DNA of 64,000 bases from a virus: positions 1 through 64,000 of IMG/VR virus record IMGVR_UViG_3300028364_000033. One strand, given 5' to 3'. A program made the position numbers and the translations under genes. The notes under the pieces were generated by a model. That model ran no database searches. It was not told where the DNA came from and saw only the letters and a list, made by a program, of their open reading frames with translations. Shown one piece after another: positions 47,250 through 58,811 of this stretch (positions are counted from its first letter, which is position 1; the number at the start of each line of letters is the position of its first letter).

Positions 47250-49490
47250 TTATAAAGTTTTTATTTTAGAGATATTATTATCCTTTATTACCGTCACAAT
47301 TTGATTCGCCCAATCCTTAACTAAATCATTCTGAGTTATAAAGAAGACTATATCGAACATATCGGTTATTCTTTCGAATAATGGTCTCATGGCTGAAATA
47401 TTCTCTGGTGCAACCCTACCTAGGACCTCATCAAATGCAATGAAGTTAGGTTTTGGTAGATTTGACATTTTACCCAGTACACATCTTAACGCAATACTTG
47501 CGGCAGTCAATTCAAAGCCACTACCAGATTTTAATGGTTTCTCAACCCCATCCTTTATTAATAAATATCTAACTTCATTCTTATCGTCAACAAAAACTTC
47601 AACATCAAAATCGGTGATATCGTCAAGTAGTCTTTGTATCTCACTATTTATTATAGGTAGTACCGACCTAAGTACTAATTTACTAATACCCTTTTTACCG
47701 ACCATATCAATATACACCCTAAAGACTTTATCAACCTCCAACTCTTTATTTATGGTTTTTATTAAATCCGTTTTTAAGGTAATATCCTTATTGTTACTTT
47801 CCTTTAGGATACCATTTGACTGTATTTTATTATTGATGCTTTCTTTTTCACGTTCACAAACAATAAGTTTAGTGTCTACTATACTTATTTCACTATCAAG
47901 TTTAGCATTTTTATCAATACCACTTACATTTTCATTGTACTTATTCAAGTCGTCATTTTTAGTCTTAAGTGAATTTCTTAATGACCCAATTTCAACTTCT
48001 ACCCTATCCTTTCTTAATTCTAATTTATTTTTTTCATTAATTTTAACCTTTGCAACACTTAATTTCTCAATTTCAATATTGATAGATGATAATTTAACCC
48101 TTAACGACATTAAGGCTTCACCTAATGCACCTATTTGTAATTTATGAGTGTTTATGTGTTCGGTGTTATCAACGTCCTCTAAGGCTCTGTTACAAGCCTG
48201 ACATATACCACCAGCTATTAAATCATCGATTACTTTGTCTAATCTAATTATTTCAGCTTCTTTAACAGCTATATCACTACTTACGGATGTTTTTTCTTTG
48301 CTTAGTTCAAAATCTCTATCCTCATCAAAATTTATATCACCGATTTTTTTTATTTTGACCTTTAACTCAGCTATCTCATTTTTATACCCAACACCCGTTT
48401 GAGTTATGGTGCTAATCTCTTGATTCAATTTAGATGGGTTTAGTGTTAATATTTTTGCATCTATTTTTTCCTTTGAACTTATAAGGGTAATTTTTTCTTC
48501 GTTTAATTTAACTTGAATTTCCTTTTGGTCAGTTAGCTCAATATCTAAAATTTTTCTTTGACTATTTAACTCGTCTATTTTACCTTGATGCTCACTAATT
48601 TCTTCGTCTAAAGTTTCAACATCATAAATGTTTGACTTCATAGTTTTTGAAAATGTTGAATACATCTTACGGGCAGCGGTTTCTTTCAACGATATCACCT
48701 CTAGACCTATAAATCTAGTTAATAGTTTACCACTTTCTCCAGATGTAGAATCAACAAGGGTGTCAAGATTTCTAGATGTGGCTAGGACCACTAAATCAAA
48801 ATCACTTTCGGTACCAACGGTTTCTTTTATTAAATTTGTCGTTTTAGTGGCATCTTCATCGTTCATTAACTCTTCTTCACCATCTGGTAAGATTATGTAG
48901 TAGTTTAATTTATTCTCTATGGTCCAACCACCCTTACGTTTAGCCTTCCTCTTTAAAAAACGCTCTATAATTATCTCGTCATCACCTTCAATTTGAATCA
49001 TGGCCCTAAGAATAAGGTCATTGTTTTCACTAAATTGATTGAATACCTGTTCATTCTTATCGGTTTTGGTTGTTGTACCAAAAAATAAGAATTTAATTGC
49101 ATCAATTGTTAAGGTCGTGTTATGTGATACTATATCATTTGAATAATACTGATGAACTTTATCTACTTGAATATCATATAAAGTGTCTCGCTCATTTAAT
49201 AATTTAATTGACTTAACATTTGAAATACCATTCCTAACTTGAATAGGTGTTCCGATTTCAATATTCTTTAAAACTTCAAATTCCCCATCTTCTTTTTTTA
49301 ATCTATGATAATCAGCACCTTCAACATACAAACCATTTTCTAGTTCACATCTATATACCTCGGCATTTTCTTCGGTTATACCACACCATGTAATATCATG
49401 AAAGCCATATGGTGTGTCCACCTCAAAACCTAAATCACCATATTTTTTGTAAATTTCATTTAATTTACCTATCTCAATTTCTTTAACCAT
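47250..49490 (-). CDS. 46: SbcC/T4 gp46-like recombination ATPase, C-terminal fragment preceded by a ~124-aa C-intein-like segment
   Basis: N-terminus ends LYDIQVDKVHQYYSNDIVSHN|T (intein block G, HN plus Thr+1); continues TLTIDAIKFLFFG (T4 gp46 TMLEAITFGLFG); long coiled coil; C-terminal signature/D-loop SGSGFELTAASIALRCVL...FIAFDEV. Confidence 0.7.
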   Translation of the reverse strand: MVKEIEIGKLNEIYKKYGDLGFEVDTPYGFHDITWCGITEENAEVYRCELENGLYVEGADYHRLKKEDGEFEVLKNIEIGTPIQVRNGISNVKSIKLLNERDTLYDIQVDKVHQYYSNDIVSHNTTLTIDAIKFLFFGTTTKTDKNEQVFNQFSENNDLILRAMIQIEGDDEIIIERFLKRKAKRKGGWTIENKLNYYIILPDGEEELMNDEDATKTTNLIKETVGTESDFDLVVLATSRNLDTLVDSTSGESGKLLTRFIGLEVISLKETAARKMYSTFSKTMKSNIYDVETLDEEISEHQGKIDELNSQRKILDIELTDQKEIQVKLNEEKITLISSKEKIDAKILTLNPSKLNQEISTITQTGVGYKNEIAELKVKIKKIGDINFDEDRDFELSKEKTSVSSDIAVKEAEIIRLDKVIDDLIAGGICQACNRALEDVDNTEHINTHKLQIGALGEALMSLRVKLSSINIEIEKLSVAKVKINEKNKLELRKDRVEVEIGSLRNSLKTKNDDLNKYNENVSGIDKNAKLDSEISIVDTKLIVCEREKESINNKIQSNGILKESNNKDITLKTDLIKTINKELEVDKVFRVYIDMVGKKGISKLVLRSVLPIINSEIQRLLDDITDFDVEVFVDDKNEVRYLLIKDGVEKPLKSGSGFELTAASIALRCVLGKMSNLPKPNFIAFDEVLGRVAPENISAMRPLFERITDMFDIVFFITQNDLVKDWANQIVTVIKDNNISKIKTL
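49119..49490 (-). other. C-intein-like segment (IntC) of an apparent split intein in gp46
   Basis: terminal VSHN followed by Thr; hydrophobic beta-strand-rich Hint-like sequence. Confidence 0.55.
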
Positions 49491-50505
49491 ATTTTAAAAA
49501 TTTTTTACATTTATCTATTACTTTTTCTTTATTCCCCCAACGATATTCTGAATCCCAAATAACTAACACATCAAAACCTTCTTTATTGGCAATATCTAAC
49601 TTACGTTTATCTTTATCCCACATTTCTTGTGCGGTGATTGTTTTTCTAAAAGGGTGTGGATAATCTTCTGCTAAATATTTTTTAGGGTTTCCATGATATT
49701 GGTCACCATTATATTCGATTATCTTTTTATTTTTGATATCAGTAAAATCATACATCCAAATCCCACCTTCTGATTCAGATTTATTTAATTTAAACTCTTT
49801 ATTATGTGTGGCAAAATTAATTTTATCCCTATCTTCTATTTTATATTGTTTTAATAATTTATAAAACAAATCTTGTGATATCTTAGAATACCCTATTTTA
49901 AGATTTCCATTATTGGTTAAAGATTTAGACCACTTATTCTGTCTTTCGGTGAAAATTTTTAAACCTTCAACCTCACCATATTTTTTAACACAAATTTCTT
50001 TTGAGAATGTAGATTGTCTTTCACTACGCTTTATTTTAGCTTCATCCTCAGAATAACCTTTATTTAACCAATATTGTAAATTAGCACTACCCTTTTTACT
50101 ATTTTCACTCCTTTTTATTTCCCTTCCACTCCAAATACGCTTCCCCTCAATTTCTCCATACCTAGCTATACAGCCCCTTTCTGAAACCAATTTTTGACCT
50201 TCTATTTGTAAAATAGCCTCACTTTCTGAATAACCTAACTTAAACCAGTATTCGGGATTAACGGGTCTAAGTGTTTTTATATGAGGGTCAATTAAATCTT
50301 CATCCATTCCCCTTTCTAACCAATATTTTTTGGAATATGCAGAGCGCTTAGGAATTTTAATTTTATTATCCCTTAATCTTTTTATTATAACACCAGTATC
50401 AACATTATATTTTTTAGCGATATTATTTGTTGATTGAAATTCATTAACATACATTTTAACAATATCATTTAACTCCACTTTTGAAAATTTATATACTTTT
50501 CCCAT
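49483..50505 (-). CDS. Vsr-fold (PD-(D/E)xK) homing-endonuclease-like protein with N-terminal DNA-binding repeats, sited between the two halves of fractured gp46
   Basis: C-terminal EYNGDQYHGNP ... GFDVLVIWDSEY resembles Vsr FVDGCFWHGH ... IRIWEHE; repeated YW-x-GYSE-EA and KKYGE motifs. Confidence 0.55.
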   Translation of the reverse strand: MGKVYKFSKVELNDIVKMYVNEFQSTNNIAKKYNVDTGVIIKRLRDNKIKIPKRSAYSKKYWLERGMDEDLIDPHIKTLRPVNPEYWFKLGYSESEAILQIEGQKLVSERGCIARYGEIEGKRIWSGREIKRSENSKKGSANLQYWLNKGYSEDEAKIKRSERQSTFSKEICVKKYGEVEGLKIFTERQNKWSKSLTNNGNLKIGYSKISQDLFYKLLKQYKIEDRDKINFATHNKEFKLNKSESEGGIWMYDFTDIKNKKIIEYNGDQYHGNPKKYLAEDYPHPFRKTITAQEMWDKDKRKLDIANKEGFDVLVIWDSEYRWGNKEKVIDKCKKFLKYG

Positions 50506-50566
50506 AATTAAATTATTTATATATAAATATAACCGTTTAATCAGGGAAGTAAAGAGGTTTAAATAA

Positions 50567-51148
50567 TTATTTTAATTCTTCGGGTATAAAACCCAGTTTT
50601 TTCTCTATTTCATCGAGATTATACTTAATTTTAATTTTAGTGTTGTACCTAATACATTTTCCGCCTTGGTTTGCTGGGTCTGAGTTAACAACGGTTAAAC
50701 CCTGGTACCTGTCAACGGGAAAGAAATTATTTTCACCAAAGGATAGGAAGTTGTTTAACATCATCCATTTGATTTTATATTTTCTGTGTAATTTATCCTC
50801 TAATTCAATATTTAATTCAGCATTAACTTTATTATCTAAATCAATTAATCTATTAAAATCAACATCTTTATTTTCTCTACTTAACCATTCTTTAAATAAT
50901 TCCCTTTGATATTTAATGGTCATTATATTGTCTATACTACCACCTTCTATTTGTATAGTCTCACCATCCCTATTAACTTTAACGGGTTGATATATCACAT
51001 TTACATTTTGCGATGGAATACCATATTTCGTTGAGAAGAATTTCCTAACCTTATTTCTAGCTTCTCTAGAATAATGTTCAGGTTTATCATTCCAATATAC
51101 CTTTATCTTACCATTTGCTGGTACGACTATACTATTATTATTCACCAT
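50567..51148 (-). CDS. 46: SbcC/T4 gp46-like ATPase N-terminal fragment ending in a 29-aa N-intein-like segment
   Basis: YKIKWMMLNNFLSFGENN ... TVVNSDPANQGGK|C aligns with T4 gp46 YKNIMSVGQNG ... LITGRNGGGKS|T; ORF stops 29 aa after the Cys. Confidence 0.65.
   Translation of the reverse strand: MVNNNSIVVPANGKIKVYWNDKPEHYSREARNKVRKFFSTKYGIPSQNVNVIYQPVKVNRDGETIQIEGGSIDNIMTIKYQRELFKEWLSRENKDVDFNRLIDLDNKVNAELNIELEDKLHRKYKIKWMMLNNFLSFGENNFFPVDRYQGLTVVNSDPANQGGKCIRYNTKIKIKYNLDEIEKKLGFIPEELK
50570..50656 (-). other. short N-intein-like segment (IntN, 29 aa, CIRYNTKIKIKYNLDEIEKKLGFIPEELK)
   Basis: starts with Cys exactly at the Walker-A GK|(S/T) position. Confidence 0.5.
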
Positions 51149-51551
51149 AAATATCTTTATTTTTATCCTTTAATAACTTTAATTCTTTTTCAAGTGCTTC
51201 AACGTTAGTTTTTAACACATTTCGCTCTTTAGTGATTTCGACTAAATCAATGGTTTGATTGTCAAACTTTAACTGTAATTCAACTATTTGACTATTTAAT
51301 TTGGTGTTGGCTTCATCATCGGTAACATAAACTTCTTTTTCAACATAAACTTCTTTTTCGACAATAACTTCTTTTTCAACAATAACCTCTTTAGTTTTAA
51401 ATGGTGTGCTACCGTATTTTTCAGCAGTAAACCCCTGTTTAATTATTTTAAGATTAAATTCACTAATATTCGGAATATCGTTTACTTTACAATATTCCCA
51501 AATTTCATCTTTTAAGTCCTTAGGTATCTCCATCTTTATTAATTTTTTCAT
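51138..51551 (-). CDS. hypothetical protein with VEKE repeats
   Basis: ORF track; EVIVEKEVIVEKEVYVEKEVYV repeat. Confidence 0.3.
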   Translation of the reverse strand: MKKLIKMEIPKDLKDEIWEYCKVNDIPNISEFNLKIIKQGFTAEKYGSTPFKTKEVIVEKEVIVEKEVYVEKEVYVTDDEANTKLNSQIVELQLKFDNQTIDLVEITKERNVLKTNVEALEKELKLLKDKNKDIYGE

Positions 51552-51961
51552 TGGTTTTATCTAAAAACACTATTTCTTTTGTATTTTCATCAATTTCAAT
51601 ACTTAATATAGGTTTATCAACCCTATAGAAATAATCTTCATCGATTTTACCAAACTCACCATTTACTATTTTATATTTTTTAAATTCATCTGGCAAAGAT
51701 AATAAAAATGTTATTAATTCGTGTAATTCCATCTTATATATTTGTTAAAACTTCAACATTATTATCTAAATCATCCAGCGAGTTTATCTTAAATTGGTAG
51801 AACCCAAAATCGGTCTCTATGTCACACTCGGTATATGTCCTAGATTCAACATCCCAGAATAAAAACCCATGTTTATTAACAGTCTCACCAAAGTTTTGTT
51901 GTATTAGGCTACTGCTAAAACACATTGGGACTATTTTTTTAATTTTAATCTTTTTTTCCAT
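51520..51961 (-). CDS. 47: possible C-terminal fragment(s) of the gp47/Mre11-like protein (two overlapping ORFs 51734..51961 and 51520..51732, perhaps joined by a frameshift)
   Basis: KHGFLFWDVESRTYTECDI weakly resembles T4 gp47 RGFWMFDTETERTEFI. Confidence 0.3.
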
Positions 51962-52862
51962 ATTTTTTAATTTCGTTAAATAATTTGAATTTAAAATTTT
52001 TCTTTCTAATATCGGTTTCGCAAAATCTAATCAAATTATAGTCATTTTTATAAGCTAATTTATTTTTAAATTCATCATTTTTTTTATTTATTTTCTGAAC
52101 CTCTGTTAATATTTTATCATCATATTTATTTGGGTTGCTATGCCAATAATCGCCATCGGCTTCAATTAATAAATTAAATTCATTTAAGTAGAAATCATAA
52201 GACCTAAAATTTATTTTATTATAACTAATTTCAAATTGTGTCTCAAATTTAATGTTTTGTTCCATTAATAACTTACCAATTTTAATTTCAATGCTAGTCC
52301 CTTTATTGTTTTTATTAGCCATTAATAATAACTCAAACGCAGTTTTACCATATTTTTTTATACAAGTATTATCAGCTTTAGTTCTATACATATCTATTTC
52401 TGATATATTTTTAACACCATATTTTCGTAATAAAGTATTTTCTCGTTTCTCTAACGATTTTTCATCAGAACCACACCAAAATCCATTTTCTTCAAAAAAT
52501 CGCTCTTGACCTAATTTAACATTATCTCTATGATTTTCATTAATCCATAACCCCTTCATTCTATTCGAATTCCATACCTTCCATTCATCAGTATGTTTAT
52601 TATTATAAACTGGATTACCTTCTTTTAAGTAAACTTCTTTTTGATGTTCATCCTTACATTTTCTTGAACAATATTTAGATTTACCAGTTTTAAGTTTATT
52701 CGGTAATGTGTTAAATTCAACCTTACAAAATAAACATACGGTTTTAACTCTCTCTATTTTATCTTTTTTATAACTATTATATTGGCATTTTCTGGTACAA
52801 TATTTTTGTGCCTTTCGTTTAGCGTTATATTCGTTACCACATTTTTCACATTTTTTATACAT
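51945..52862 (-). CDS. Vsr-fold (PD-(D/E)xK) homing-endonuclease-like protein with N-terminal zinc fingers, paralog of 49483..50505
   Basis: CEKCGN..C..C and CLFCK..C..C zinc ribbons; RKYGV/KKYGK repeats; C-terminal IEADGDYWHSNPNKY Vsr/DUF559-like motif. Confidence 0.55.
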   Translation of the reverse strand: MYKKCEKCGNEYNAKRKAQKYCTRKCQYNSYKKDKIERVKTVCLFCKVEFNTLPNKLKTGKSKYCSRKCKDEHQKEVYLKEGNPVYNNKHTDEWKVWNSNRMKGLWINENHRDNVKLGQERFFEENGFWCGSDEKSLEKRENTLLRKYGVKNISEIDMYRTKADNTCIKKYGKTAFELLLMANKNNKGTSIEIKIGKLLMEQNIKFETQFEISYNKINFRSYDFYLNEFNLLIEADGDYWHSNPNKYDDKILTEVQKINKKNDEFKNKLAYKNDYNLIRFCETDIRKKNFKFKLFNEIKKYGKKD

Positions 52863-52922
52863 ATCTAAAATTTTGTTGTATTATTATTTAATAATAAATA
52901 TAACAACAAACGTGAAAAGATG

Positions 52923-53603
52923 TTATTCATCCATAACCCAACCCATTTTTTCATACCTTTCTAATTCTGATTCATAAATTTCTTTTTTTTCAATATTATA
53001 AAAACAACTTCTTTTATGAATATCCCCTAATAAAACCATATCACAACCATCAAAATGTTCCAATGATTGCGCTTCATCGAATTTATAACCTATATCCGTA
53101 GTTGCGCCAGCTAATGGTGCATGATATAATCCGATATATGTTTTATCATCACCGAATTCAAGTCTAGCGGATTCAATATCTGGTCTACTATTTTCCTCAA
53201 AAATAGAATAAACACACCAAACTATGTTTCCGTCTTCAAAACACCCAGTATCTCTATAATATTGTATTTTACAATCAGGTAACAACTTAACCATAGGTGT
53301 GATACTATCTAACCTATCCTTGTTATTTTCTAACAAATCATGATTGCCAGCAATTATAACAACTGGTGCTATTTTATCTAACTTTCTAAGGAACCAGGTC
53401 CCTAGCATTAATAATTCATTAGATATGGTTATTTTTTGGTGAACATAATCACCAGCGATAACTATTCTAATTTCATCTCTTTCATAACCTTCGACTAATT
53501 TCCTAATCTCCTTTAATGTTGTCTTAAAGGCTTCACCATATTCAGAATGCATTTTGTATGTTCTGATGTGAATGTCGGCCATATGTATTATTTTTTTTAC
53601 CAT
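52923..53603 (-). CDS. 47: SbcD/Mre11-like (T4 gp47-like) calcineurin-fold nuclease, N-terminal fragment with C-terminal Cys-initiated 27-aa tail
   Basis: phosphoesterase motifs MADIHI, AGDYVH, GNHD, GLYH, GDIHK; shorter than T4 gp47 (226 vs 339 aa); tail CFYNIEKKEIYESELERYEKMGWVMDE resembles gp46 IntN-like tail. Confidence 0.6.
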   Translation of the reverse strand: MVKKIIHMADIHIRTYKMHSEYGEAFKTTLKEIRKLVEGYERDEIRIVIAGDYVHQKITISNELLMLGTWFLRKLDKIAPVVIIAGNHDLLENNKDRLDSITPMVKLLPDCKIQYYRDTGCFEDGNIVWCVYSIFEENSRPDIESARLEFGDDKTYIGLYHAPLAGATTDIGYKFDEAQSLEHFDGCDMVLLGDIHKRSCFYNIEKKEIYESELERYEKMGWVMDE

Positions 53604-54556
53604 TATAATCTACTTTTTAGTAATTTAACCCTATCTTCTTCGGCTATTAAATCAGTTTTTTTCTTTTTCATCACCTCTTTAATTCTAGGTAATGGTGGCA
53701 TTGTTAACACTATATTTATAAAATCCCTAGATACTCTAAATTCTTTATAAACTCCCTCAGCCGATAAATGAACAATAATACAACCAAATAATTTAATATC
53801 CTCATATTTTGTACCTTTTAACATATCCAATATTAATCTAGCATATAATGGTAATTGTATTTTATAGTGCCCTAAGGACGTATCCATTTCATCTTCAAAC
53901 GGAGGTAACATAGCTTCCGTATATGAATGTACCTCGAAATTTTTAGGCTTATTCGATTTCCAGTCGGTGACTATGAAACCCAAATTACCCTCACCATCGA
54001 ACATTATCCATACCTTATCTGGTTGCCCAGTATACTTTAATTCGTTACTACCCAACACCATTTCCGTATCCAATAAAACCGCACCTCGCCTATGCATCAA
54101 TCTTATAAAATTATGGCCAGCATCAATCATGGCATTGCCATCGTTAATCTGGTCTTCATTACAATCGAATATGGGCTTTCTAACGTCCTTATAAGAACCA
54201 TATTGGGCCAGTAGGTCCATTTCTAATAAATAATGTACCCTAGACCCCTTAGAATTAGCATAATCCGCTGTACCCCTCCATTCGGTTAACAGTTTGTCTT
54301 GTTCAAATATATCACCATTACACATATCGAATGATTTTTCAAGTGCTGGAAACTCATTGTAGAATTGTTTAATAACAGTTGATACCGATGGAAATTTAGT
54401 TGTCATGTCACCCTCTTTTGTTCTAATATGATAAGTGTGGGTATCTTCAACAAACGTTAATTCAAGTTCTTTTTGTTTTTCGGTAATTATATTTCTTATT
54501 TCCTCACCTATCTTTAATAACTCGGCTTTATAGTTGGTATTTGGTTCGTTTTTCAT
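53603..54556 (-). CDS. PD-(D/E)xK (RecB/Cas4-like) nuclease-fold protein
   Basis: VEDTHTYHI ... GQPDKVWIM ... FIVTDWKS consistent with D / D-x-K nuclease motifs. Confidence 0.4.
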   Translation of the reverse strand: MKNEPNTNYKAELLKIGEEIRNIITEKQKELELTFVEDTHTYHIRTKEGDMTTKFPSVSTVIKQFYNEFPALEKSFDMCNGDIFEQDKLLTEWRGTADYANSKGSRVHYLLEMDLLAQYGSYKDVRKPIFDCNEDQINDGNAMIDAGHNFIRLMHRRGAVLLDTEMVLGSNELKYTGQPDKVWIMFDGEGNLGFIVTDWKSNKPKNFEVHSYTEAMLPPFEDEMDTSLGHYKIQLPLYARLILDMLKGTKYEDIKLFGCIIVHLSAEGVYKEFRVSRDFINIVLTMPPLPRIKEVMKKKKTDLIAEEDRVKLLKSRL

Positions 54557-55156: not shown

Positions 55157-55732
55157 ATGAAAAATTATATAAAACAAAGGTTAAGGGAAGATTTAGAATA
55201 TCATCACGTTTCAGATGCTACAAAGGATGAATATACTCTAAATGAAGATGCTATCACAAATGATTTAAGAAATGAATATATAAAATTGGGTCTTAAGACT
55301 TCATTTAGTAACCCAAACTTAGCAAAAAGGGCATTGGAAAATATTTTATATATACTTAATAAATTACCTCAAACTATTACTTTATATAGAGTAGTATTTG
55401 TTAGTAGTATAGAAAGTATTGATACAAAACATATAGGTTCACACTATGTTTTAAGTGATAAAGATTTATCATCTAGTCACAGTCAGAAAAGTCATGTTGG
55501 TGGTGGTGAACCTGTTCTACTTATAGTTAAATCACCCAAGAACTTAATAGATGTAGATGCCACAATAAGAAATAGAATGGAATTTCCGAATGAAAAAGAA
55601 ATAACTTTAAAAAATAGAGGTTTAGGGGCTAAAATTATAAGTAAAACACCTTTCTTAAGTAGTGATAGTGAAGAAGATTTAATCGGCTTACCTGATGATG
55701 ATTTTGATTTTGGTTACGATGACGATTTTTAA
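55157..55732 (+). CDS. hypothetical protein (lone plus-strand gene), acidic C-terminus
   Basis: ORF track; ends 4 nt inside primase gene stop region. Confidence 0.4.
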   Translation: MKNYIKQRLREDLEYHHVSDATKDEYTLNEDAITNDLRNEYIKLGLKTSFSNPNLAKRALENILYILNKLPQTITLYRVVFVSSIESIDTKHIGSHYVLSDKDLSSSHSQKSHVGGGEPVLLIVKSPKNLIDVDATIRNRMEFPNEKEITLKNRGLGAKIISKTPFLSSDSEEDLIGLPDDDFDFGYDDDF

Positions 55733-56691
55733 TATAACTCAATTTCTGGAACCCTTTTAGAAGTTTTTAATAATTTTATAATACCAGACCTACCTTCATT
55801 TTTAAAAATAGAAGCTGGGTCTTCTTTATACGGTGGAGTACATAACTTAATCTTATTATATAAATCACCAACATTAAGTTCTTTATAAATTCTAATAGCA
55901 TCATCGTAGGCATCCTCATCTAATAATATTACAATATCCGCTCTGGACTTGGTTAATATCATTTGTTTAACTCTAACACTTAAATTTTTACCCAGTATAG
56001 GTATTGAGTTTGGAATTACTATATGGTCAAAGGCTCCTTCTACCAAATATATTGTAGAATCCCAATTAATCTTATCCTCATTAAAGATAATCGCTTGTTT
56101 TTCAGCATCTGGGTTATTATATTTTGGTTTATTGAAATCGTCCCAAGCCCTACCAACGAAATAATTTAAATCACCTACCTCATCGTATGATGGGATTATG
56201 ACCCTGTTCCTAAATTTACCATAAGTAGTAAAACCTATATTAAATTCTTTAATTATTTCATCAGTAAATCCTCTATCTATTAGATAATAATATGCGTGTG
56301 AATATTTATACTCACTACCAGTGCACTCACTAAGTTTTTTAAAGCCATCGGGTAAATGTACAACCGTTGCTTGTATATCATTTAGGTTCGGTTGATAATC
56401 ATTCTCTGGTTTAAGTAATAAATAATCCTTTAGTATTTTTTTATTACCGTATCGTTTGATTAATTTAGGTATTTTACCGTACATGTTGTTTTGGTAGTTA
56501 CAAACCCAACACTTAAATATACCACGTTTATAATTAATCGCTAATTTATGTCTACCATCACCTTGACCCATAGGAAGTCCCTTATCCTCAGCACAAGCTG
56601 GACAATCCCAACTTGTTTGACCACTTTCTTCATTGTGTTCATGTGGCTCCCCTAAAAAACTTCTAAATATGTTAAGTATGATATTATCCAT
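55729..56691 (-). CDS. 61: DNA primase (T4 gp61-like): zinc ribbon plus TOPRIM
   Basis: WDCPACAEDKG...HKLAINYKRGIFKCWVCNY zinc-binding domain; YLVEGAFDHIVIP TOPRIM (T4 YVLEGPIDSLFI). Confidence 0.7.
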   Translation of the reverse strand: MDNIILNIFRSFLGEPHEHNEESGQTSWDCPACAEDKGLPMGQGDGRHKLAINYKRGIFKCWVCNYQNNMYGKIPKLIKRYGNKKILKDYLLLKPENDYQPNLNDIQATVVHLPDGFKKLSECTGSEYKYSHAYYYLIDRGFTDEIIKEFNIGFTTYGKFRNRVIIPSYDEVGDLNYFVGRAWDDFNKPKYNNPDAEKQAIIFNEDKINWDSTIYLVEGAFDHIVIPNSIPILGKNLSVRVKQMILTKSRADIVILLDEDAYDDAIRIYKELNVGDLYNKIKLCTPPYKEDPASIFKNEGRSGIIKLLKTSKRVPEIELY

Positions 56692-56778
56692 GTTTACAAA
56701 TATATAACTTTTTTTTTAAAAATGCTATAAAAAAGCTATTTTTATTATTTTTATAGATATTTATTAATAAAGATATAA

Positions 56779-56931
56779 TATGGGAAGACCAAAATTAAAT
56801 GAAAGTGATAAGAAAATAAAAGTTAGTATAACTTTGGATAAAGACTTAAATGACCAGTTAAATAAAATCACAAATAATAAATCTAAATTAATTGGGGAGT
56901 TGTTAGAAACACATATAAAAGAAAATGAATA
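56779..56931 (+). CDS. small ribbon-helix-helix-like protein (50 aa), translationally coupled to downstream GIY-YIG gene
   Basis: MGRPKLNESDKKIKVSITLDKDLNDQLNK... beta-strand/helix pattern of Arc/CopG RHH; stop overlaps downstream ATG (AATGAATAA). Confidence 0.4.
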
Positions 56932-57773
56932 AAATAGGTATATATAGGATAATAAATATAAAAAACGGTAAATTTTATATTGGTAGTTCAATTAATATAA
57001 CTAAAAGATGGTATGACCATAAACGTACACTTAGAAAGGGTATTCATGATAATGATTATTTGCAAAAATCTTGGAACAAATATGGTGAAAATAATTTTGA
57101 GTTTAATATAATCGAAATTATTGAAAATGTTACCGACCTATTAATACGTGAACAATATCATTTAGATGTTATGAAACCATTTGATAAAGATAAAACATAT
57201 AATATATGTGGCTTTGCTAATAACATGTTAGGTTTTAAGCATTCAGACGAAACAAAAATGAAATTATCTAAAATTCATAAGGGTAATAAATATAACTTAG
57301 GTAATAAACATTCTGATGAAACTAAAAAAATGATGTCCATTTCACATACTGGTGAAAAACATTATAGTGAAACTATAATTAAACTTATAAAAACTAAAAC
57401 TGGGGTTGGTCATTCAAGTGAAACTAAAAATAAATTATCCAACATAAAAAAAGGTAAACCAGCGTTAAATAAAAGAAAAGTTTACCAGTTAGATACTGAT
57501 GGTAATACAATTAAACTATGGGATAGTTTAACTGATGCAGCTAATAATTATAATATCGACCCATCTAGAATTAGTTCAGTTTGTAATGGTAGAACTAAAA
57601 TATGTATTGGGTTTAAGTGGGTGTATTTTTCTTCAAATGAAAAAACTAAATTAACTGATACAATTAAAAAAGAAATTATAAATCTATATAAAACTGGTTA
57701 TTATTCAACCAGAAAATTAGCTGATTTATTTAATATTAGTAAATCAACAATTTGGAATGTGGTTAATAAATGA
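56925..57773 (+). CDS. GIY-YIG homing endonuclease (I-TevI/Seg-like) with NUMOD3-like repeats and C-terminal HTH
   Basis: GIYRIINIKNGKFYIGSSINITKRWYDH; repeats GFKHSDETKMKLS / GNKHSDETKKMMS / GVGHSSETKNKLS; C-term RKLADLFNISKSTIWNVV. Confidence 0.75.
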   Translation: MNKIGIYRIINIKNGKFYIGSSINITKRWYDHKRTLRKGIHDNDYLQKSWNKYGENNFEFNIIEIIENVTDLLIREQYHLDVMKPFDKDKTYNICGFANNMLGFKHSDETKMKLSKIHKGNKYNLGNKHSDETKKMMSISHTGEKHYSETIIKLIKTKTGVGHSSETKNKLSNIKKGKPALNKRKVYQLDTDGNTIKLWDSLTDAANNYNIDPSRISSVCNGRTKICIGFKWVYFSSNEKTKLTDTIKKEIINLYKTGYYSTRKLADLFNISKSTIWNVVNK

Positions 57774-57951
57774 ATATTGACCACTGTCATCATTGTGACT
57801 GTGGCATTCACCTAAAAATCCCCTAAATAAATTAATTAAAATATTGTCCATATTGCAAATATATGAAAATTAATCCATATTTGCAATAGGAACTTAGTTT
57901 ATAGGCCAATAACCATTTTTTTGTATATAACCAATAACACATAAGTAACTA

Positions 57952-58737: not shown

Positions 58738-58811
58738 AACTTTATTTATAAATATATAGAAAGTGGGTAAAATACCGATTTAGGTGAGAAAAGATTTATA
58801 TATGTGTGTTA

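Follow-up and report, generated by a model that had tools for sequence, protein, structure and literature searches.

A Mre11/SbcD-like nuclease gene of an environmental phage in two pieces around a predicted Vsr-like homing endonuclease gene: a very probable case of an intein-less fractured gene

We analyzed a 64-kb stretch of viral DNA, positions 1-64,000 of IMG/VR record IMGVR_UViG_3300028364_000033 (hereafter the window), and describe a minus-strand locus in which a Mre11/SbcD-like nuclease gene, called gp47 after its T4 counterpart, is encoded in two pieces with an endonuclease gene between them. The locus is very probably an intein-less fractured gene, in which a free-standing homing endonuclease gene of the EDxHD type lies inside the nuclease gene. 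That the two pieces, of 226 and 75 amino acids (aa), are translated separately and without an intein is a reading that we hold with high confidence. As read from the sequence, the inserted cassette supplies an acidic tail and stop codon to the upstream piece (N-piece), a promoter-like box and the endonuclease open reading frame (ORF), whose last 17 nucleotides (nt) also contain the start codon for a basic head on the downstream piece (C-piece). The locus is made up of the following features.

52923-53603, minus strand: Mre11/SbcD-like nuclease N-piece, whole ORF, 226 aa, ending in ...GDIHKRSCFYNIEKKEIYESELERYEKMGWVMDE
52992-53603, minus strand: native part of the N-piece, aa 1-204, from phosphoesterase motifs I-V to GDIH plus the first native beta-hairpin strand (SCFYNI)
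52926-52991, minus strand: acidic tail EKKEIYESELERYEKMGWVMDE, 22 aa, not in unsplit relatives
52923-52925, minus strand: stop codon of the N-piece
52863-52922, minus strand: 60-nt spacer from the N-piece stop to the endonuclease start, with the promoter-like box TATATTTAT at 52894-52902
51945-52862, minus strand: free-standing homing endonuclease, intact, 305 aa, zinc ribbons plus a Vsr-like/EDxHD domain
51734-51961, minus strand: C-piece, whole ORF, 75 aa, ATG at 51961
51932-51961, minus strand: basic head of the C-piece, 10 aa (MEKKIKIKKI), not in unsplit relatives
51734-51931, minus strand: native part of the C-piece (VPMCFSSSLIQQNFGE...VEVLTNI), last core strands and small capping domain

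The 226-aa ORF was identified as a calcineurin-like phosphoesterase (Pfam Metallophos, E 1.7e-11) with a SbcD-like match in PHROG (E 2e-16), and a Rad50/SbcC-like gene is encoded downstream of it. This agrees with the SbcD/Mre11-like call of an earlier note on this DNA, which was made from the letters alone and held in addition that the protein lacked its C-terminal ~110 aa. Used as a query, the ORF retrieved 1097 homologs, and length and state classes were read from the best 120 clusters (66 split, 52 unsplit, 2 in-frame). These clusters fall into two length classes, namely unsplit proteins of 270-274 aa (...GDIHKRQ-SFNHKG-IPIAYPSSLIQQNFGE...LTNx, end) and split N-pieces of 226-227 aa (...GDIHKR[QSG]-xFxxK-[QE]T[KL]EI[DY]ExELExYxKMGWx[IL]D[NE], end), and uninterrupted alleles of the P0002/L004 type span the site as ...GDIHKRQSFNYKG followed directly by IPIAYPSSLIQQNFGE.... 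Because the homologs form these two length classes, the intact enzyme of this lineage is about 270 aa long, not 339 aa as T4 gp47 is. Residues 1-202 of the unsplit homolog P0002 are collinear with the N-piece of the window (E 2.6e-124) and residues 198-269 match the 75-aa ORF at 51734-51961 (E 1.5e-31), which has the same ...LTNx C-terminus as the 270-aa homologs. The metal-binding motifs are all on the N-piece, and the C-piece contributes the final core strands along with the small capping domain. By these alignments, the two pieces together span the unsplit homolog from end to end with nothing missing, so that the proposed truncation does not hold. The six frames of the window contain no further match to P0002 and no second gp47.

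Two short ORFs had also been described in the earlier note as weakly similar to the gp47 C-terminal region and as possible products of a frameshift. This was right for 51734-51961, which is the continuation of the nuclease, and wrong for 51520-51732 (minus strand, 70 aa), a separate gene directly after the C-piece. The latter was rejected as a frameshifted gp47 fragment, since it has no gp47 similarity and is conserved in its own right: its homologs directly follow gp47 in 44 loci that are not part of the split set, most of them with an unsplit gp47, and in 9 split loci. The ORFs and peptide strings reported earlier were all recovered at their minus-strand coordinates. The same eight-gene layout was found in JGI, ENA and Logan assemblies (6 places inspected), and the exact C-piece sequence is present on 20 contigs. 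A frameshift or assembly artefact is excluded by this recurrence, and frameshifted small ORFs have no part in the locus. Among GenBank phages no near-identical DNA was found, and tblastn gave distant relatives only. The 3' end of the endonuclease gene overlaps the start of the C-piece by 17 nt (51945-51961), which places the C-piece ATG inside the endonuclease ORF.

The N-piece junction in the window reads GDIHKRS-CFYNIEKKEIYESELERYEKMGWVMDE, and the true break lies 5 residues past Cys200, with the non-native tail beginning at residue 205. A total of 55 distinct tails align without insertions or deletions, their length is invariant, and Y, G and W are almost invariant within them. All of them are acidic (mean net charge -4.6, range -10 to -2, n=55). 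The C-pieces were collected by a search with the 75-aa ORF, which gave 50 clusters of 63-106 aa; in most of these a head of the form M(E)KKKIKIKK is conserved and is followed by native [IV]P[IV]AY, and the net charge of the head is always basic (mean +4.2, range +3 to +5, n=17 distinct variants). The ratio of nonsynonymous to synonymous polymorphism (pN/pS) was computed on a codon alignment of nine split alleles and was 0.30 for the core and 0.53 for the tail, with pS values of 0.74 and 0.48, respectively. Since synonymous variation occurs at conserved residues of the tail, the constraint on it acts on the protein. Both pieces appear to be under purifying selection, and judged from these alignments the tail and the head are conserved components of the cassette.

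The earlier note had further suggested that the N-piece ends in a Cys-initiated tail homologous to the N-terminal intein half (IntN) of the nearby gp46 gene, and that the locus might be a second split intein with a diverged or frameshifted C-terminal half (IntC). The gp46 locus, which served as reference in our searches, is composed as follows.

47250-51148, minus strand: gp46/Rad50-like locus
50567-51148, minus strand: gp46 N-piece
49483-50505, minus strand: 340-aa ORF
47250-49490, minus strand: 746-aa gp46 C-piece

Cys200 aligns with a variable native residue after KR[QS] (C, T, S, K, G, L, V, I or H) in split and unsplit relatives alike, the four residues after it (FYNI) still align with native F-N-[YH]-K, and the insert then opens with E, Q or T. 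The cysteine is thus at a variable native position five residues before the real break, and no conserved Cys or Ser nucleophile was found as first residue of the insert. We treat Cys200 as a coincidence of a co-converted flank and not as a nucleophile. The insert amounts to only 32 aa in total and its 22-aa tail has neither block A nor block B. Pfam intein and Hint families did not match the N-piece, the endonuclease or the C-piece at E<=1, and the 50 C-piece clusters (none longer than 106 aa) contain no IntC and no HN plus nucleophile. A hidden Markov model (HMM) was built from ten gp46 IntC sequences and run on the six frames of the window and on 90 loci. It matched the gp46 C-piece of the window (E 1.2e-72) and, beyond gp46, found nothing below E about 4 in either set, and no HN plus nucleophile turned up for gp47 in any frame of the window. 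The failure of the earlier note to locate an IntC was therefore borne out, by this HMM as well as by the C-piece clusters.

The similarity of the tail to the gp46 IntN was examined with an HMM of the 55 distinct tails. This model recovers every gp47 tail (E <= 5e-7) and the tail of L001, a phage only 37% identical (E 5e-4), and it does not match the gp46 N-piece or IntN even at E<=100. In a profile comparison with hhalign, tail and gp46 IntN were aligned over 11 columns (ExYxKMGWxxD / EIxKKLGFLPD; P 0.017, probability 2.6%), and 4% of 400 column shuffles attained the same score. On these figures we regard the proposed homology as unproven. The DNA upstream of the endonucleases of the two loci has only a 23-nt promoter-like box in common. 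This box was considered as a sign of a common cassette and rejected, because other gene-upstream regions of the window score equally well or better.

The gene between the pieces encodes a 305-aa protein. Its N-terminus (about aa 1-75) carries two or three CxxC...CxxxC zinc ribbons, a helical segment follows, and the nuclease domain at the C-terminus (about aa 190-305) contains the motif IEADGDYWH...D, in which E234, D236, H241 and D263 form the E-D-x-H-D pattern that defines Vsr-like homing endonucleases (PMC3239194). D236, G237, Y239, H241 and D263 do not vary across 77 homologs, and D223, E234 and D238 are almost invariant. An AlphaFold2 (AF2) model of the protein had a mean predicted local distance difference test score (pLDDT) of 92.3. 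The top four matches of a Foldseek search of this model against PDB were Vsr and I-Bth0305I (1cw0_A E 5.4e-4; 3r3p E 2.3e-3; 1vsr E 6.2e-3), and 3r3p superposed on it with a template modelling (TM) score of 0.70-0.71 and a root-mean-square deviation of 3.7-3.9 over about 113 columns. Sequence comparisons gave weaker signals: Pfam matched DUF7487, PvuRts1I_N, MTES_1575 and Vsr (0.0019) weakly, profiles matched DUF559 (3e-4), and a domain-only profile against solved structures reached 3hrl (E 0.1) and 3r3p (E 0.21), both weak. The single sequence and the full-length profile gave no useful match against solved structures. By fold and motif, the middle gene is an intact predicted homing endonuclease of the EDxHD/Vsr-like type, as the Vsr fold assigned to 51945-52862 in the earlier note had anticipated. 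The same note had called it paralogous to the endonuclease of the gp46 locus, which applies to the catalytic domain (BLASTP E 4e-5) and not to the N-terminal half, which is unrelated.

The box upstream of the endonuclease, [TG]ATATTTAT, is about twofold more frequent in the window than in shuffles, and 20 of its 25 copies are on the coding (minus) strand (52894-52902, 50523-50531, 58748-58756, 56756-64 and about 20 others). Both Vsr-like endonucleases and a GIY-YIG endonuclease have it 11-40 nt upstream of their starts, and the spacers before the gp47 endonuclease in 6 loci all contain ATATTTAT unchanged; it is probably a lineage-specific promoter element. A regulatory hairpin upstream of the endonuclease, as in Dassa et al., was also considered and rejected: a stem can be drawn for each locus, the folding energy does not stand out from shuffles (z -0.54), and RNAalifold found no consensus.

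Two kinds of endonuclease were observed at the gp47 site, with a common N-terminal zinc-ribbon region (E 2e-9) and different nuclease domains. The Vsr-like/EDxHD kind occurs in the window (51945-52862), L019 and L030. The other is a TnsA-like PD-(D/E)xK kind ('PDF...EVKG'; Pfam Tn7_TnsA-like_N E 5.8e-6, above the cutoff), encoded in L003 (5745-6626), L040 (5746-6630), L041 (5720-6625), L074 (5764-6648) and L001 (3671-4588). As far as these domain comparisons go, this is a swap of nuclease domains on a common DNA-binding module.

Site states were read from 80 IMG/VR loci. About 60 of them have an empty site, with 57 nt from GDIH to SSL, and full cassettes of about 1085-1105 nt are found in L003, L019/20, L030, L040, L041/42 and L074. 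At other loci the split is kept with the endonuclease truncated or lost, with gaps of 435 nt (L013/27) and 238 nt (L081); a gap of 302 nt was seen in L014, where an N-terminal remnant of the endonuclease is fused to the head, and one of 163 nt in L016/17, where stop and start are 5 nt apart. The tail and head are fused in frame in L009/L011 (156 nt; KQTMEVDKENLERYIKIGWVVDDDKNSAKINIKKVIPIC), P0088 and P0112, and L037 and L080 have near-native scars. The suggestion in the earlier note of a degenerating split applies only to some relatives that have lost the endonuclease; it does not apply to the window, which has an intact one.

On a neighbour-joining tree of 120 core sequences the split state needs about 15 changes, and the 15 closest cores to that of the window (77-87% identity) are all unsplit. 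In its distal blocks the gene of the window resembles unsplit P0002 (21-25/25 identities per block), and close to the break it is nearer to the split allele of the L013 type (23/24 versus 9/16 identities). Such a mosaic is the pattern expected of a co-conversion tract, which would have brought in 'SCFYN' and 'PMCF'. Homologs of the endonuclease (40-48% identity) occupy the same site in phages that have the Mre11 C-part fused to Rad50 and Mre11 cores only 37-38% identical to that of the window, and the tails of those distant phages match the tail HMM (E 2e-6 and 4.5e-5). The patchy states, the mosaic and the decay forms suggest that the insertion behaves as a mobile element.

A related arrangement was observed in the distant phages L089, L091 and L093 (and L001, L002), in which the Mre11 C-part is fused to a Rad50-like ATPase in an ORF of 930-946 aa. 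In these phages the fusion is interrupted at the same Mre11 hairpin by a member of the same endonuclease family, and tail and head can be recognised. An unsplit Mre11-Rad50 fusion of 1066 aa is present in Microcystis phage Mel-JY01.

The N-piece and C-piece were modelled with AF2 as one artificial chain from 136 aligned sequences. The fused model (pLDDT 88.4; predicted TM score 0.87) matches SbcD/Mre11 structures that comprise nuclease and capping domain (Foldseek 7dog_A, E 7.6e-10, then many Mre11/SbcD entries). Around the break, where block pLDDT is 76-90, it contains a strand at 199-209 (SCFYNIEKKEI), a helix at 211-219, a strand at 223-227 (VMDEM) and an 11-residue strand at 231-241 (IKIKKIVPMCF), in which the head lies and continues the native strand. 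These modelled strands and helix suggest that residues of tail and head extend the native hairpin (SFNHK-G-IPIAY), with a helix as its cap, and the break is predicted to fall at the tip of a beta-hairpin after metal-binding motif V (GDIH). We tentatively suggest that tail and head may act as a beta-zipper and charge clasp that aids the assembly of the two chains. A broader version of this idea, in which tail and head are no accident of read-through and form a portable part of the cassette, a non-covalent clasp that does the docking of a split intein without splicing and that might derive from the gp46-type intein fragments on either side of its endonuclease insertion site, seems to us rather doubtful. 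If it were true, a selfish gene could interrupt an essential enzyme gene at the tip of a hairpin without loss of the enzyme.

Taken as an intein-less fractured gene, the locus would work as follows. The two pieces would reassemble non-covalently into one Mre11 fold, and the tail and head would lengthen the native hairpin, add a helix cap and opposite charges and in this way might clasp the pieces. During co-infection the predicted endonuclease would cut uninterrupted alleles, and repair would copy the cassette together with short flanks. Decay would then proceed through loss of the endonuclease, in-frame scars and, finally, restoration of near-native sequence. Trans-complementation without splicing, which had been offered in the earlier note as one of its options, is compatible with all of the evidence.

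Several points weigh against this account. Mutual binding of the pieces and activity of their complex are predictions from sequence and model. The model is an artificial single chain, so that the pairing of tail and head strands is read from secondary structure and confidence only. The tail is looser than the core (pN/pS 0.53 versus 0.30), and part of its conservation could reflect a recent spread of the cassette and not function. Lastly, tail and head bear a weak resemblance to the gp46 intein segments that flank the endonuclease site of that gene (hhalign P 0.016-0.017; 'LPDE' motif in P0088).

This resemblance is the ground for supposing that tail and head are non-splicing remnants of a gp46-like intein, moved together with the endonuclease or left after a deletion, which we consider improbable. 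Tail plus head can be aligned to the N-region of the gp46 intein over 17 hhalign columns across the stop/start junction (P 0.016), the in-frame P0088 allele (...EEYKKMGWKVNGGLPDEVHVSKL...) resembles the contiguous gp46 intein EIGKKIGVLPDEITIGEL, both heads fit M-x-K-x-I-x-I-x-K, and the two endonucleases have a nuclease domain in common. However, the probability of the alignment is 2.9% and its P value is marginal for peptides that are short and rich in K, E and I, the two endonucleases have unrelated N-terminal domains, and the only DNA likeness of the upstream regions is the promoter-like box, which is found at other genes too.

It is very unlikely that gp47 is a decaying pseudogene, inactivated by the insertion and left to drift while another nuclease substitutes for it. 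Split genes are often presumed dead, and the search for a second Mre11 covered the 64-kb window. Yet that search found no second gp47, the reading frames of both pieces are intact and are conserved across dozens of clusters defined at 90% identity, the pN/pS of the core among split alleles is 0.30, the tail length is invariant, an identical C-piece occurs on 20 contigs, and in L016/17 the split persists past the loss of the endonuclease with stop and start 5 nt apart.

Finally, we give almost no credence to a second split-intein locus, where the tail would be a short IntN, a diverged IntC would lie downstream and the protein would be trans-spliced as proposed for gp46: it has in its favour a gene order as in true fractured genes, the related nuclease domain of the two endonucleases (E 4e-5), a Cys within the tail region of the window and the weak ExYxKMGWxxD likeness (hhalign P 0.017), but that Cys is variable and native, most split relatives have no Cys/Ser/Thr pattern there, the 10-aa head has no HN in the 50 C-piece clusters, the tail is without block A or B, Pfam intein families, the IntC HMM in any frame and the tail HMM all came up empty at gp47 or against the gp46 IntN, shuffled columns reach the hhalign score in 4% of cases, and without tail and head the sequence is already collinear with unsplit homologs.

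A Vsr-like endonuclease family and 'fractured genes' were described by Dassa et al. 2009 (Nucleic Acids Res 37:2560, PMC2677866), among them a SbcD-like gene from the Lake Gatun sample of the Global Ocean Sampling (GOS) that is in two ORFs, with a Vsr-like ORF in the middle and no split intein. In that locus the upstream ORF has 25 additional C-terminal residues and the downstream ORF 9 additional N-terminal residues that are absent from intact homologs, and the endonuclease gene extends at its 3' end into the downstream ORF (PMC2677866). By the published description, the architecture is the same as in the window, where the tail has 22 aa, the head 10 aa and the overlap 17 nt. Since that layout was described in 2009 (PMC2677866), the locus of the window is a further example of a known architecture. 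The Lake Gatun case was a single locus, whereas the split arrangement accounts for 66 of the best 120 clusters in the present survey. What is added here is the abundance of the element, a complete series of decay forms with in-frame scars, the fact that tail and head are conserved and complementary in charge, the break at the hairpin tip, and the presence of the same zinc-ribbon module joined to two nuclease domains at one site.

A comparable case is the nrdA-a / mobE / nrdA-b 'genes in pieces' of Aeromonas phage Aeh1 (Friedrich, Gibb, Edgell and co-workers; cited in PMC2677866). As summarized there, an essential phage gene for DNA metabolism is likewise split by a free-standing homing endonuclease gene that overlaps the downstream piece. 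The same summary has the Aeh1 pieces translated separately into a non-covalent complex whose activity was shown experimentally, whereas the gp47 locus is known from sequence and model. It also differs, according to that source, in its HNH-type endonuclease and its host gene, a ribonucleotide reductase. The split peptide extensions of gp47 set a further comparison: we know of no conserved tail and head peptides described at Aeh1 nrdA.

The split-intein fractured genes (gp41-1, NrdJ-1, IMPDH-1; Dassa 2009) and the gp46 locus of the window have the same order of N-piece, endonuclease and C-piece as gp47, the same nuclease family and the promoter-like box. They have a genuine IntN (Cys1) and an IntC that terminates in HN plus Thr, Ser or Cys, whereas the gp47 locus has neither; Pfam Intein_splicing matches only the 746-aa gp46 C-piece (E 3e-5), and relatives contain contiguous mini-intein forms. 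I-Bth0305I, the EDxHD prototype (Taylor et al. 2011, PMC3239194; PDB 3R3P), is encoded by a group I intron and has NUMOD/helix-turn-helix modules. The endonuclease at the gp47 site resembles it in the C-terminal nuclease fold and the catalytic E, D, H and D, and is unlike it in being free-standing with N-terminal CxxC zinc ribbons.

These results turn the single 'SbcD-like, intein-less fractured gene' of 2009 into a widespread, dynamic element of large environmental phages, with all stages of the homing-endonuclease life cycle visible at one site. If the peptides hold the halves together, they would be a natural minimal way to run an enzyme as two chains, and it would be useful to contrast them with the true split intein of the Rad50-like gene, which lies 1 kb away. 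As no second split intein is present at gp47, the locus offers no new tool for trans-splicing.

The gp46/Rad50-like intein (window 47250-51148) sits in the P-loop (GGK/C...SHN/T) and was itself observed in several states. It is a contiguous mini-form in L016/17 and L019/20, it is split after residue 29 by a 336-342-aa endonuclease in the window and five other loci, it is split without an endonuclease in L062, and it is split with an unrelated 140-aa ORF in L013/14. Its IntN is unusually short and its split site atypical. The first ~130 aa of the gp46 N-piece (50567-51148) precede the Rad50 P-loop and weakly match the linker of the Mel-JY01 fusion (E 0.002, 23% identity). Some of the T4 gp47 C-terminus may, by this weak match, lie at the gp46 N-terminus in this lineage.

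Three neighbouring regions showed features of their own. A conserved 137-aa ORF between gp47 and gp46 (51138-51551, minus strand) contains a tandem peptide repeat (EKEV[IY]V) x4, whose number appears to vary among otherwise identical contigs (137, 131 and 125 aa in L083, L085 and L084, respectively). Upstream of gp47, and overlapping it by 1 nt, a 317-aa ORF (53603-54556) matches the PHROG exonuclease family phrog_298 (E 5.4e-20) and has no Pfam match. Further upstream, a 35-aa ORF on the minus strand (57744-57851) matches the first 28 aa of a primase-like ORF (55729-56691, minus strand) at 64% identity (18/28, E 2e-12), and between the two copies of the primase start the plus strand encodes a 50-aa ORF (56780-56932) and a GIY-YIG endonuclease (56925-57773). 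The arrangement in 55729-57851 suggests the insertion of an endonuclease gene, with duplication of the 5' end of the gene that it targeted.

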